In this document: positions 49,101 to 55,100 of the stretch, in pieces
How the letters are laid out: every line of letters starts with the position of its first letter
Position numbering within the stretch: the first letter of the stretch is position 1
Assembly: GCF_046105845.1 (NCBI RefSeq)
Contig: NZ_CP151004.1
Length of the DNA stretch: 64,000 nucleotides
Strand: one strand, 5' to 3'
Source: Escherichia coli
Lineage (GTDB): Bacteria > Pseudomonadota > Gammaproteobacteria > Enterobacterales > Enterobacteriaceae
Made by a program: the position numbers

Positions 49101-52100
49101 GGCAGTGGCTCGCTGGTTGATCTTAGCCAGTACGGTTTGCCGAAAGAGCCAATGCCGCAGGAGTTGATTGCGGCGGGCGTCAGTCTGGTGAGCTTCTCCG
49201 GCGACAAGTTGTTAGGCGGGCCGCAGGCAGGAATTATTGTTGGTAAAAAAGAGATGATCGCCCGCCTGCAAAGCCACCCGCTGAAGCGTGCATTACGCGC
49301 GGATAAAATGACCCTCGCGGCGCTGGAAGCCACGTTGCGTCTTTATTTACACCCTGAGGCGCTGAGTGAAAAATTACCGACCCTGCGTCTGCTTACCCGC
49401 AGCGCAGAGGTCATTCAAATCCAGGCACAACGTTTACAGGCCCCCCTTGCGGCACATTACGGCGCGGAGTTTGCGGTACAGGTTATGCCATGTCTTTCGC
49501 AGATTGGCAGTGGTTCGCTGCCGGTTGATCGCCTGCCGAGTGCGGCATTAACGTTTACACCCCATGATGGACGCGGTAGCCACCTTGAGTCATTAGCCGC
49601 CCGCTGGCGTGAATTGCCAGTGCCGGTGATTGGTCGTATTTATGACGGACGATTGTGGCTGGATTTACGCTGCCTAGAAGATGAGCAACGGTTTTTGGAG
49701 ATGTTGTTGAAATGATTATTGCGACTGCCGGACACGTTGACCACGGCAAAACAACCTTATTGCAGGCGATTACTGGCGTAAATGCCGATCGTCTGCCGGA
49801 AGAAAAAAAGCGCGGCATGACTATCGATCTCGGCTATGCCTACTGGCCGCAGCCGGATGGTCGCGTGCCTGGTTTTATCGACGTACCCGGTCATGAAAAG
49901 TTTCTTTCCAACATGCTGGCGGGCGTTGGTGGTATCGATCACGCGCTGTTGGTGGTGGCGTGCGATGACGGCGTGATGGCACAGACCCGTGAGCATCTGG
50001 CGATTTTGCAGCTGACCGGTAATCCGATGCTGACAGTGGCGCTGACCAAAGCCGATCGCGTGGACGAAGCGCGTGTTGATGAGGTTGAACGCCAGGTAAA
50101 GGAGGTGCTGCGGGAATACGGTTTTGCTGAGGCAAAACTGTTTATCACCGCAGCAACCGAAGGTCGGGGAATTGATGCCCTGCGCGAGCATCTGCTTCAG
50201 TTACCAGAACGCGAACACGCCAGCCAACATAGTTTCCGCCTCGCGATCGACCGCGCATTTACCGTAAAAGGTGCCGGGCTGGTCGTCACCGGTACGGCGT
50301 TAAGCGGGGAAGTGAAGGTAGGCGATTCACTATGGCTGACTGGTGTAAATAAACCGATGCGCGTGCGTGCGCTACATGCGCAAAATCAGCCAACAGAAAC
50401 TGCCCATGCCGGGCAGCGTATCGCGCTTAACATCGCGGGTGATGCGGAAAAAGAGCAGATTAACCGTGGCGACTGGCTGCTTGCCGATGCGCCGCCGGAG
50501 CCGTTCACACGGGTGATTGTCGAGCTTCAAACCCATACACCGCTGACCCAGTGGCAGCCGCTGCATATTCACCACGCCGCCAGCCACGTCACGGGACGCG
50601 TTTCGCTGCTGGAAGATAACCTTGCCGAGCTGGTGTTCGACACGCCGCTGTGGCTGGCGGATAACGATCGCTTAGTGCTGCGCGATATCTCGGCCCGCAA
50701 CACGCTGGCGGGGGCGCGTGTGGTGATGCTTAACCCGCCGCGTCGCGGTAAACGTAAGCCGGAATATCTGCAATGGCTGGCGTCACTGGCACGGGCGCAG
50801 AGCGATGCCGATGCGTTATCTGTTCATCTGGAACGCGGCGCGGTTAACCTTGCCGATTTCGCTTGGGCACGGCAGCTCAACGGCGAAGGGATGCGCGAAC
50901 TATTGCAACAGCCTGGCTATATTCAGGCTGGTTATAGCTTGTTGAATGCGCCGGTTGCCGCCCGCTGGCAGCGGAAAATTCTCGACACATTAGCGACTTA
51001 TCATGAGCAACATCGCGATGAACCTGGTCCTGGGCGCGAACGTCTGCGACGTATGGCGTTGCCAATGGAAGATGAAGCGCTGGTACTGTTGCTGATTGAA
51101 AAGATGCGCGAAAGCGGCGACATCCTCAGTCATCACGGCTGGCTGCATCTGCCAGATCACAAAGCGGGATTCAGCGAAGAGCAGCAGGCCATCTGGCAAA
51201 AAGCAGAGCCGCTGTTTGGTGACGAGCCGTGGTGGGTGCGTGATCTGGCAAAAGAGACGGGAACCGACGAGCAGGCAATGCGCCTGACGCTACGCCAGGC
51301 GGCGCAGCAAGGAATTATTACCGCGATCGTTAAAGATCGTTATTACCGTAACGATCGGATTGTCGAGTTTGCCAATATGATCCGCGATCTCGATCAGGAG
51401 TGTGGTTCAACCTGCGCGGCGGATTTCCGCGATCGCTTAGGTGTAGGCCGAAAGCTGGCAATTCAGATTTTGGAATATTTTGACCGCATTGGCTTTACGC
51501 GGCGTCGTGGAAATGATCATTTATTGCGCGACGCATTATTATTTCCGGAAAAATAATGAGATAATTAATTAAGATTAATTAGGAAACACTCTAAAAATCT
51601 TATTAATTTTTAAAAAAGCACATTCGGATGTGCTTTTTTTATGGCCTCTTATAAAAAGAGCAATAGCGGTCATGTTTTCAAATAAAAACACTTCGTAAGC
51701 TTCTCGCCCTTTTATACTCGTTCAGGAGTGTGTTATGGCTGCTTCCACCTTTTTTTATTCCTTCCGTTAATGTCATTGGTGCAGATTCTTTTAAAGATGC
51801 GATGAATATGATGGCGGAATATGGTTTTCGCCGTACATTAATTGTGACTGATAGTGTGCTAACAAAATTAGGTATGGAGGGTGATGTACAAAAAGCATTA
51901 CAGGAACGTGATATTTTTAGCGTAATTTATGATGGTACGCATCCTAACCCGACCACAAAAAACGTCGCAGAAGCTCTTAAAATGCTGACGGAAAATAATT
52001 GCGATAGCGTGATTTCTTTAGGTGGTGGTTCCCCGCACGACTGCGCAAAAGGCATTGCGCTGGTGGCAGTTAACGGCGGCGATATTCGCGATTACGAAGG

Positions 52101-55100
52101 CGTGGATCGCACGGCGAAACCGCAACTACCGATGATTGCCATCAACACCACGGCGGGTACTGCATCAGAAATGACCCGTTTTTGCATTATCACCGACGAA
52201 GCACGCCACATCAAAATGGCGATTGTGGATAAACACGTCACCCCGCTGCTTTCTGTGAACGATTCGACTCTGATGATGGGTATGCCGAAGCCGTTAACCG
52301 CCGCCACCGGGTTGGACGCGCTGACTCACGCCATCGAAGCGTATATCTCTATTGCGGCAACGCCGATCACTGACGCCTGCGCGCTGAAAGCAATGACCAT
52401 GATCGCGGAAAACTTACCGATAGCGGTTGAAGATGGTCACAACGGCAAAGCGCGTGAAGCAATGTCTTACGCTCAGTTCCTCGCGGGCATGGCGTTTAAT
52501 AATGCTTCACTGGGATACGTACACGCGATGGCGTATCAGTTGGGTGGCTTCTATGACCTGCCGCACGGCGTTTGTAATGCCATTCTGCTGCCGCACGTTC
52601 AGTTATATAACAGCAAAGTTGCCGCCGCACGCTTTGACTGCGCGGCGGCTATGGGCGTGAATGTCACAGGCAAAAACGACGCGGAAGATGCGCAAGCCTG
52701 CATTAAAGCGATTCGCGAACTGGCGAAGACAGTGAATATCCCGGCAGGCCTGCGCGATCTGAATGTGAAAGAAGAAGATTTTGCGGTGCTGACCACCAAT
52801 GCCCTGAAAGATGCGTGTGGATTCACTAACCTTATTCAGGCAACCCATGAAGAAATTGTGGCGATATATCGCGCCGCAATGTAGTTCTCTTCCCGCAACG
52901 GCTGGCGCGTTGTCAGCCGTTTTGCTGAAGATATTACTGTATTTATGATATGGATATCAGACTATTAAAATATATTCAGACCTGTTTTGGAATATCTCAA
53001 TAATATTCGTTTCATTTGCGGTCGGGGGAAGAATTACCTACTATTCGCTGAGCGTTAAGGCCTGCTAATTGATCAACTTATGATCAATCAATATGGAAAA
53101 GTTATTGTTAAATAAATAACATATCGCACGCTGAATACGTCATGAATTTTTTTCAAGAAATATGTTATTAATAGTAAAGATGATCAAATTTATAAGCTTT
53201 TTTTATCTGTAAGCTGCGCCCCTTTTTCATATGGAGATAAAAACATGGCAGCTTCAACCTTTTTCATTCCCTCTGTGAATGTAATTGGCGCGGATTCATT
53301 AAAAGATGCAATGAATATGATGGCGGATTATGGTCTGCGTCGTACATTAATTGTGACAGGCCGTGTAATGGGCAAGAGCAGCGTGTTGGTGCAACTCCAA
53401 CAAGCCTTGCAGGAACGCAATATCGTAAGCGTTGTTTATAATGGCTCCCAACCGAACCCAACGACGAAAAACGTGGCTGCGGGTTTAAAAATATTGCAGG
53501 AAAATAATTGTGATAGCGTTATCTCCTTAGGCGGCGGTTCTCCACATGACTGTGCAAAAGGGATTGCGCTGGTGGCAACCAACGGCGGCGATATCCGGGA
53601 TTACGAGGGCGTAGACCGCTCGGCGAAACCGCAATTGCCAATGATTGCCATCAACACCACGGCGGGTACGGCGTCTGAAATGACCCGTTTCTGCATCATT
53701 ACCGATGAAACGCGCCACATCAAAATGGCAATTGTGGATAAACACGTCACCCCAATTCTTTCTGTTAATGATTCTACGTTAATGATGGGGATGCCGGAGT
53801 CACTGACCGCCGCCACTGGGATGGACGCATTAACCCATGCCATCGAAGCATATGTCTCTATTGCGGCAACGCCGATCACTGATGCTTGTGCATTGAAAGC
53901 GGTCACCATGATTGCTGAAAACCTGCCGCTGGCAGTAGCAGACGGAAGCAATGCCCAGGCGCGTGAAGCTATGGCTTACGCCCAGTTCCTCGCGGGTATG
54001 GCGTTCAACAACGCATCGCTGGGTTACGTTCATGCAATGGCGCACCAGTTAGGTGGTTTTTACAACCTGCCTCACGGGGTGTGTAATGCTGTTTTGCTGC
54101 CGCATGTTCAGGAGTTCAACAGCAAAGTTGCCGCTGCACGCCTGCGTGACTGCGCGGCGGCAATGGGTGTGAATGTAATGACAATGAACGAAGCTGAAGG
54201 TGCGCAAGCTTGCATTAATGCCATTCGCGAGCTGTCGAAGAAAGTGAATATCCCGGCAGGCCTGCATGAACTGGATGTTAAAGAAGAAGATATTCCGGTA
54301 CTGGCCACCAATGCCCTGAAAGACGCATGTGGGTTTACAAACCCAATTCAGGCAACCCACGAAGAAATTATGGCGATTTATCGCGCCGCAATGTAATTAC
54401 CCTTCCTCCAGCGGCTGGCGTTTTGTCAGCCGTTTTTTTAACTATCTCAAAATTCGCGTTTTTTGAGATAGTTTCTCTTTCCTGCTATACACTATCTCAA
54501 TATTACGCTTTTTTGAGATAGGCAAATGGTTATCAAATCACCTCCCACGCTGATTCCTTTATCACACTTATCGGGTGAGGAACTCCAGGCCCACCTGCGC
54601 TTTAACCGGGTTACCGATGAAAAAGGACGTTATCTACCTTTTGATGAGTTGCAGTACCGCATCAAAAAAGGAGAAAACGTCGAAGTGGCGTGGACGCTTA
54701 CCCGTCTGGCGCGCAACGCGGCGATCCAACGAATCAATTATTGCAATGAAGCGGGTGAACAGGCCGGATACAACATTACCCCGGTGATTGCAGAAGCGTG
54801 CGAGCTTGTCGACAAACGTGCTACCGCGCTGGCGCTGAAAGATCAGACTGAACGGTTACGCGGGGCCGGAGCCGAGTTAAGCCAGTTACGCCTGGAAGAG
54901 CCGATCACCAGCTCCCAGCTGGAAGGTGCGAATACTACAACGCTGGTGGCGAGAAAAATGCTGGAAACAGGGCGGTCGCCACGCACTGAAGACGAGCATA
55001 TGATTGCAGGAAATGCCCGACTGATGGCGGAAATTCCGCACTTACTCGCAGAACCGCTGACACCTGCGCTTATTCGCCAGTTACATGCCATTGGTATGGG

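Follow-up and report, generated by a model that had tools for sequence, protein, structure and literature searches.

Why does an Escherichia coli chromosome carry two iron-dependent alcohol dehydrogenase (ADH) genes of the yiaY type, head to tail, where the species ordinarily has one? The question is raised by a 64,000-nucleotide (nt) stretch of E. coli contig NZ_CP151004.1 (RefSeq assembly GCF_046105845.1), hereafter the window, in which two co-directional Fe-ADH frames (51730/51735-52884 and 53245-54396) lie between selB and fic/aldB. A first inspection made without database searches (the sequence-only reading) had described this pair and proposed an old duplication or an acquired paralogue. 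We consider it probable that the locus is an old segmental duplication carried on a divergent, imported haplotype, in which the upstream copy (copy 1, ADH1) would be dead and the downstream copy (copy 2, ADH2) working, with a remodelled coenzyme loop. What the sequence-only reading overlooked is that the duplicated unit reaches into the selB 3' end and takes in the whole intergenic region, that neither allele is native, and that copy 1 is probably dead. The features referred to below are as follows.

49712 to 51556, plus strand: selB, of the ordinary E. coli type (open reading frame [ORF]; 97-99% identical to E. coli selB)
51557 to 54430, plus strand: divergent cassette, consisting of intergenic region, copy 1, spacer, copy 2 and the start of terminator 2
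51612 to 51640, plus strand: selB terminator hairpin (AAAAAAGCACATTCGGATGTGCTTTTTTT), from folding
51735 to 52884, plus strand: copy 1 (ADH1), read as a yiaY pseudogene; long ORF from GTG 51730, 384 codons
52899 to 52923, plus strand: terminator hairpin 1, CGGCTGGCG-loop-TGTCAGCCG then TTTT
52968 to 53058, plus strand: decayed remnant of the selB 3' end, frame ...VLEYLNNIRFICGRGKNYLLFAER*
53059 to 53244, plus strand: decayed duplicate of the entire selB-yiaY intergenic region, which serves as the 5' region of copy 2
53245 to 54396, plus strand: copy 2 (ADH2), an intact 383-residue YiaY-type Fe-ADH; ORF from ATG
54411 to 54440, plus strand: terminator 2, a hairpin then a T7 tract (terminator scan and folding)
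54526 to 55821, 3' of copy 2: Fic-family gene, then aldB

The repeated unit

A repeat search returned collinear families with a spacing of 1509-1513 nt, far beyond chance; measured head to tail, the selB fragments lie 1517 nt apart, the coding parts 1509-1512 nt and the terminators 1513 nt. The AT-rich spacer described earlier measured 360 bp at 33.6% G+C. Identity between the copies had been put too high by eye, at about 90% of protein residues; pairwise alignment gave 83-84% for protein and 80% for DNA. The claim of near-identical terminators held for the CGGCTGGCG...TGTCAGCCG hairpin behind each gene (86% identity over 35 nt) but not for the T tracts, which differ in length (4 versus 7). 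Compared with shuffles, hairpin 1 folded at -22.8 kcal/mol (z = -4.8) and hairpin 2 at -16.3 kcal/mol (z = -4.5). Terminator 2, an 11-pair stem followed by 7 T, was picked up by the terminator scan; hairpin 1, with the same stem and a stable fold, was missed because only 4 T follow it.

The spacer is made up of two decayed segments. The first was compared with the last ~90 nt of selB, taken as its source at a repeat length of 1.51 kb. Its frame VLEYLNNIRFICGRGKNYLL...* resembled the SelB C-terminus ILEYFDRIGFTRRRGNDHLL, with a local protein score of 44; shuffles averaged 20.8 +/- 3.3, and 1 of 2000 reached 44. In DNA, 35 of 60 nt (58%) were identical to selB 51467-51526, and repeat family D4 independently matched selB 51464-51495 to spacer 52981-53012; their offset of 1517 nt keeps them in register with the two genes. 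G+C content was 33% in the remnant versus 56% in selB. The extent of this decay is roughly as expected from neutral change since the copies began to diverge, the estimate being drawn from 60 nt only.

The second segment, 53059-53244, aligned with the complete selB-yiaY intergenic region of E. coli, E. albertii, Escherichia sp. E1V33 and Citrobacter. The multiple alignment took in 10 Escherichia and Citrobacter regions; local alignments covered 145-159 nt at 65-74% identity, with scores matched by 0-4 of 1000 shuffles. The conserved boxes GATCAnATTT and GTAAGCTGCGCCCCTTTTT (GTAAGCTGCnCnCCCTTTT) survive in this copy; its version of the selB terminator hairpin has decayed or been lost. A Shine-Dalgarno (SD) sequence for copy 2, GGAG at 53233-53236, lies 8 nt 5' of the ATG. 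The unit formed by selB 3' end, intergenic region, yiaY and terminator is repeated in register, and we therefore regard the arrangement as a genuine segmental tandem duplication.

A distant-homology search with the spacer as query found nothing in 5,426 complete E. coli genomes other than the 34-nt hairpin, and no Rfam family reached threshold in the region. Because a promoter scan gave fewer matches than shuffled sequence, no promoter is claimed.

Occurrence of the tandem and the search for a donor

Exact look-up of the copy 2 protein and three close variants in separate sequencing runs, metagenome assemblies and NCBI assemblies yielded 33 contigs in all, with the order selB-ADH-ADH-fic-aldB in every contig long enough. 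The full 2969-bp interval was spanned by 28 loci, representing 10 haplotypes that were 99.2-100% identical to the window. Tandem-bearing strains include those of GCA_033741295.1, GCA_016445805.1, GCA_033742465.1, GCA_017778035.1 and GCA_002230595.1.

None of the 5,426 complete E. coli genomes had two copies or either allele. The cassette interval matched 4,693 of them, always at 80-90% identity and with both copies mapping to one annotated yiaY. Standard E. coli is indeed single-copy, as had been stated for K-12: yiaY was present in 5384 of the 5426 genomes, at a median of 1 place per genome. The synteny comparison also took in 74 species-representative loci, including E. coli, E. whittamii, E. 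albertii, Escherichia sp. E1V33, Citrobacter, Salmonella, Kluyvera, Pluralibacter, Rahnella and Shewanella. Each had one copy within +/-6 kb, and none was more than 90% protein-identical to either copy; two copies are thus neither common nor ancestral in any sampled species. The gene order selA-selB-yiaY-(fic)-aldB was common to the Escherichia, Citrobacter, Salmonella and Kluyvera loci.

The scan for a donor covered 100,044 species representatives and yielded no allele above 90% identity to either copy. Searches of 5.8 billion proteins found, above 90% identity, only the cassette's own variants and a single contig (P0007) that appears chimeric; save for this contig, the band from 90 to 99% was empty. 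P0007 (Logan SRR21291477, 2805 bp) was examined and rejected. In it, a selB end, an intergenic region and ~330 nt from the start of an ADH gene, all Kluyvera-like, are fused to a 3' part whose encoded residues match copy 2 and to fic; it is probably an assembly chimera across a conserved 11-residue stretch, a real recombinant being the alternative. Three other candidates, long proteins that scored as ADH1/ADH2 hybrids (P0002, P0006 and P0008), proved to be standard E. coli YiaY with internal repeats. The E1V33-type allele was absent from E. coli, where all matches were 80-90% identical, and no report of a yiaY duplication was found in the literature searched.

Over four stretches of the window (20000-44000, 48324-51556, 54397-57467 and 57468-64000), the closest complete RefSeq E. 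coli genomes were only ~96.5-98.9% identical; close relatives of the host lineage are therefore scarce among finished genomes.

Age and relationships of the two alleles

Both copies were 82-84% identical in DNA and 88-90% in protein to standard E. coli yiaY, with flanks at 97-100%. Against complete E. coli genomes, the neighbouring genes reached up to 98.9% (selA/selB), up to 96.6% (fic-aldB) and 98.4% (downstream genes). At the left edge, identity to E. coli was 98-100% up to the selB stop and 47-75% at 51540-51707. At the right edge, it was 80-83% at the end of copy 2, 88-92% over the next 120 nt (after 54428) and at least 95% from ~54550. Sliding windows showed even divergence from E. coli along both genes, and the same comparison, used as a mosaic test, found no E. 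coli-like or recent gene-conversion tracts within either copy. Between the copies, codons 301-383 had a mildly lower synonymous divergence (dS, 0.47).

Over the whole genes, dS was 1.02 between ADH1 and ADH2, 0.86-1.01 between ADH1 and E. coli yiaY, and 0.97-1.02 between ADH2 and E. coli yiaY. The corresponding values were 0.58 for E. coli versus E. albertii and 1.4-1.5 for E. coli versus Citrobacter or Salmonella. The great age ascribed to the duplication is thus borne out, dS between the copies (~1.0) lying above that between E. coli and E. albertii. The ratio of nonsynonymous to synonymous divergence (dN/dS) was 0.05-0.09 throughout the yiaY comparisons, with a long-term value of 0.05-0.06 for copy 1. 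G+C content at third codon positions was 52% in the copies, which is Escherichia-like; it was 57% in Citrobacter and 67% in Kluyvera.

Neighbour-joining trees were built on the codon alignment, third positions alone being noisy. All Escherichia alleles grouped together (bootstrap, 96-100%), and with all positions E. coli, E. whittamii and E. albertii formed a group without both copies and E1V33 (94-98%). ADH1 was joined to the allele of single-copy Escherichia sp. E1V33 in 84-92% of bootstraps, and ADH1 and ADH2 were exclusive sisters in 2-5%. Since ADH1 groups with E1V33 and not with ADH2, the duplication predates the ADH1/E1V33 split. On these trees, the duplication is best assigned to an allele lineage deeper than the split of E. 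coli and E. albertii.

Other Escherichia lineages also showed discordance between yiaY and its flanks. The E1V33 gene (6001-7152 of its locus) had an identity of ~85% to ADH1 and likewise to the E. coli allele, with selB/aldB at 93-94% to the window. The yiaY of E. coli E69 clustered with that of E. whittamii at 100% bootstrap (each at 6001-7152 of its locus). Standard yiaY is unusually polymorphic: 418 complete E. coli genomes were 90-95% identical to the K-12-type allele, and 3 were at 80-90%.

Cassette diversity and the origin of the haplotype

Mean pairwise difference was calculated for the seven tandem-bearing haplotypes with long flanks. The cassette differed by 0.35% (maximum, 0.59%), and the flanks by 1.56% in selB, 1.34% in fic and 2.82% in aldB; one carrier had different genes beyond aldB. 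No donor-like tracts were found in selB, fic or aldB of the other tandem-bearing haplotypes, the flanks being mosaics of ordinary E. coli alleles. The low diversity of the cassette is consistent with a common origin in the relatively recent past, after which flanking recombination would have spread the cassette to, or retained it in, different backgrounds.

In the scenario that we favor, an old tandem duplication of the last ~90 nt of selB, the intergenic region, yiaY and the terminator would have built a 2.9-kb haplotype. Its copies would then have diverged for a long time under purifying selection, in a lineage of the Escherichia clade outside the E. coli/E. whittamii/E. albertii allele group. 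Finally, the cassette would have entered a few E. coli strains and replaced their single yiaY; it was most likely imported from an unsampled lineage, with the selB and fic/aldB flanks providing the homology for recombination.

Several points weigh against this scenario. We infer the import only from the divergence contrast together with the low diversity of the cassette, and no donor lineage turned up among the species representatives or the proteins searched. Basal branching within Escherichia is weak: ADH2 falls outside the other alleles in 20-66% of bootstraps, and is sister to ADH1 plus E1V33 in 28-43%. A single duplication and a foreign selB-yiaY fragment placed beside a resident gene cannot be told apart.

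The main alternative to import is that an ancient allele class has persisted within E. coli as a long-term balanced or neutral polymorphism, with no recent import. We judge this unlikely while taking it seriously, as the edges of the cassette coincide exactly with the ends of the unalignable region, as though flanking recombination had eroded linked donor DNA. The marked polymorphism of standard yiaY itself (the 418 genomes at 90-95%) and the E1V33 gene, which is also far more divergent than its flanks, point the same way. Against persistence, cassette diversity is 4-8x below that of its own flanks, which implies a recent common ancestor of all cassettes, and the cassette is absent from the 5,426 complete genomes.

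A second alternative dispenses with duplication and has a fragment from a second donor (selB 3' end, intergenic region and yiaY) inserted downstream of a resident divergent yiaY. The placement of ADH2 outside all other Escherichia alleles in part of the bootstraps (the 20-66% above) would suit such an event, as would the grouping of ADH1 with a single-copy allele, that of E1V33. The junction, however, is in register with a simple head-to-tail repeat at 1509-1517 nt, and the selB remnant has decayed in step with the divergence of the copies. Moreover, the second donor allele is in no database searched, and the topology (ADH2,(ADH1,E1V33)) keeps its 28-43%. We therefore hold an insertion of this kind to be improbable.

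Copy 1 as a probable pseudogene

The upstream regions of the orthologues all end in CAGGAGTGTGTTATG, and copy 1 retains the SD and ATG (51724-51737; SD AGGAG, 51724-51728). Copy 1 is not an intact gene: the conserved ATG at 51735 meets a T7 run (51750-51756) where T6 is expected, resulting in a +1 frameshift and a stop at 51768-51770. T7 was present in 28 of 28 assemblies spanning the site. The long ORF is available only from GTG 51730, which starts 1 nt past the SD; Prodigal needs this GTG and PGAP needs a CTG. The region had no annotated protein in two NCBI assemblies and was annotated as a protein in some others.

Further changes were found in the body of the gene. Residue 267 is Tyr in copy 1 (H267Y; TAT, 52534-52536; AMAYQLGG), where 137 of 145 homologues have His and Tyr occurs only in 8 ADH1-type sequences. 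Copy 1 also has a one-codon deletion (AARF-DC), retains Asp39, and as an ORF scored 791 bits on model NF007363 (cut-off, 581). Sister haplotypes carried a nonsense change, AAA to TAA at 52705 (3 haplotypes), or an 11-bp deletion at 52709-52719 (2 haplotypes). Within the lineage, copy 1 had accumulated 10 nonsynonymous, 1 nonsense and 2 synonymous changes, a protein-changing to synonymous ratio of 11:2, and several of the nonsynonymous changes fell at invariant residues (G to D, R to C and S to L). Copy 2 had 3 nonsynonymous and 5 synonymous changes.

We read copy 1 as a pseudogene and, because its long-term dN/dS is low, take its inactivation to be recent relative to the age of the gene. The upstream copy would have died through the +1 frameshift and H267Y, with independent nonsense and deletion mutations following in sister strains. 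Two findings count against this: the polymorphism contrast between the copies is marginal (Fisher p = 0.056, with small counts in the expected direction), and the window haplotype keeps a full-length copy 1 ORF from GTG or CTG. Programmed frameshifting or slippage at the T7 run was also considered and set aside, as sister strains carry further disabling mutations.

The opposing explanation makes both copies functional paralogues, copy 1 being translated from GTG/CTG or by slippage at T7 and serving a specialised role. It could draw on the 384-codon frame kept in the window haplotype, the low long-term dN/dS, the 791-bit score and the protein annotated by PGAP in some assemblies. We nevertheless think it quite improbable. 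The conserved SD-ATG is out of frame and the GTG begins 1 nt after the SD; a His invariant in 137 relatives is Tyr; and NCBI annotates no protein in two assemblies. Sister strains add a stop codon or an 11-bp frameshifting deletion, with invariant residues hit and the 11:2 ratio.

Copy 2 and its coenzyme loop

Copy 2 scored 796 bits on NF007363, on which E. coli YiaY scored 867. It has His267, and the metal ligands D194, H198, H263 and H277 (Zymomonas mobilis ADH2 numbering) are invariant in ADH2, ADH1 and two E. coli YiaY sequences. Judged from its sequence, copy 2 is an intact, working gene under purifying selection. It has an upstream regulatory region of its own, its ribosome-binding site is good and its terminator strong, the four metal ligands are all in place, and most of its polymorphism is synonymous.

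One segment of the protein departs from the family. Copy 2 has Gly39-Arg40 (53359-53364; D39G/N40R; LIVTGR), found in only 4 ADH2-type sequences of 145 homologues, and Asp39 is present in the other 141 and in the five closest solved enzymes. Across codons 29-68, dN relative to E. coli was 0.40, versus 0.04 over the remaining codons, dS being similar, and in the coenzyme loop ~13 of 30 residues neighboring 39/40 were changed. NADP(H)-dependent group III enzymes (those using nicotinamide adenine dinucleotide phosphate) have Gly at this site, and the Asp of NAD(H)-dependent enzymes, including Z. mobilis ADH2, clashes with the 2'-phosphate (PMC8836905). Because of D39G/N40R and the remodelled loop, read with this Gly/Asp rule, the NAD/NADP discrimination of copy 2 is predicted to be relaxed or switched; we offer this as a weak hypothesis. 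Three observations speak against it: ADH2 is without the GGGS motif of known NADP(H) enzymes; Asp is retained in 8ZWD, a solved relative described as "NAD(P)-dependent"; and the remodelled patch has a dN/dS of 0.33, thus below 1.

The fullest form of this idea, that copy 2 was naturally switched to NADP(H) by D39G/N40R and a remodelled beta2-alpha2 segment and functionally replaced the NAD-dependent copy within an ancient haplotype from a deep, unsampled Escherichia lineage, is put forward tentatively, as a possibility that we would not bet on. In the favored scenario, remodelling of the loop in copy 2 would have relaxed or switched the discrimination between the two coenzymes.

Less likely explanations: recent duplication and assembly artefact

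If the native E. coli yiaY had been duplicated in place not long ago, with fast divergence of both copies, this would account for the head-to-tail arrangement at the orthologous position. Such an event is very hard to reconcile with a dS of ~1.0 both between the copies and to the E. coli allele beside adjacent genes at 97-100%, with even divergence free of E. coli-like tracts, or with the branching of both copies outside the E. coli/E. whittamii/E. albertii clade, and we give it very little credence.

An assembly artefact, in which a mis-expanded or mis-joined repeat conceals a single true copy, had nothing found in its favor beyond the general caution of the sequence-only reading and can be dismissed, as the copies differ at 20% of bases, so that an assembler cannot confuse them, and the same tandem, T7 frameshift included, recurs across 33 contigs assembled independently from separate sources, in 10 slightly different haplotypes.

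Neighboring elements

The selB terminator hairpin aligned with the hairpin of other Escherichia, its loop being 11 nt shorter. Positions 51571-51640 gave a sub-threshold Rfam match to the Salmonella small RNA STnc40 (24.7 bits, where the gathering score is 45; E = 0.32).

Directly 5' of the Fic gene, a 31-nt palindromic unit, ACTATCTCAA[A/T]ATT..CG..TTTTTTGAGATAG, occurs twice (54441-54471 and 54491-54521), 50 nt apart and 84% identical. The pair looks like a putative operator, and the palindromes were also present in fic-carrying E. coli loci at 89% identity. The selB remnant holds ATATCTCAATAATATT at 52990-53010, which is like one half of this palindrome (72% over 32 nt, family D4); the likeness is probably a chance match in AT-rich DNA. 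The fic gene (54526-55821) is itself a presence/absence polymorphism: at least 80% of the fic-aldB query was covered in 1,572 of 5,426 complete E. coli genomes, and K-12-type loci are without fic. No NCBIfam model matched the Fic-family gene at E <= 1e-20.

Implications and comparison with known systems

For annotation, NCBI names both genes "L-threonine dehydrogenase," yet one is, on our reading, a pseudogene with an invented start codon. For population genetics, the locus is a sharply bounded, ~17-20% divergent tract in ordinary E. coli DNA, and would imply gene flow from, or survival of, an unsequenced Escherichia lineage deeper than E. albertii. For enzymology, Gly39-Arg40 would, if the prediction is true, be a natural example of the Asp-to-Gly cofactor switch engineered into group III dehydrogenases, with the adjoining ancestral-type copy as a built-in comparison.

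YiaY of K-12 (NF007363, a group III Fe-ADH annotated as L-threonine dehydrogenase) shares family, length and metal ligands with both copies, as well as the selB-aldB position, upstream boxes and terminator hairpin. It has been described as an NAD-dependent threonine dehydrogenase (PMC10918650), whose reductase activity on acetaldehyde and isobutyraldehyde was very weak or absent (PMC3439341). The K-12 locus differs in being single-copy where two copies stand here, copy 1 having the frameshift and H267Y, and copy 2 having D39G/N40R and the remodelled segment 29-68. The closest solved structure, alcohol dehydrogenase 2 of Z. mobilis (PDB 3OX4/3OWO), aligned over its full length without gaps (E = 9e-159) and has the same metal-binding residues, but carries Asp39 (LIVSDAF) where copy 2 has Gly39-Arg40 (LIVTGRV). 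The NADP(H)-dependent group III enzymes YqhD and Bacillus subtilis YugJ resemble copy 2 in presenting Gly to the 2'-phosphate (PMC8836905). They carry GGGS, whereas copy 2 has TGRVMGKSS, and they are distant relatives, the YqhD-type model NF011717 giving only 98 bits.

The locus also resembles the ordinary fate of duplicates and ordinary allele replacement in E. coli, in its head-to-tail unit with non-coding flanks, its one decaying copy and its recombining flanks. Unlike in ordinary duplicate loss, both copies were under purifying selection for a very long time (dS ~1, dN/dS 0.05-0.09) before the upstream copy died. Overall, we conclude that this is ordinary gene-family evolution, with a textbook duplicate fate in a familiar enzyme family, and that no new kind of system is involved.

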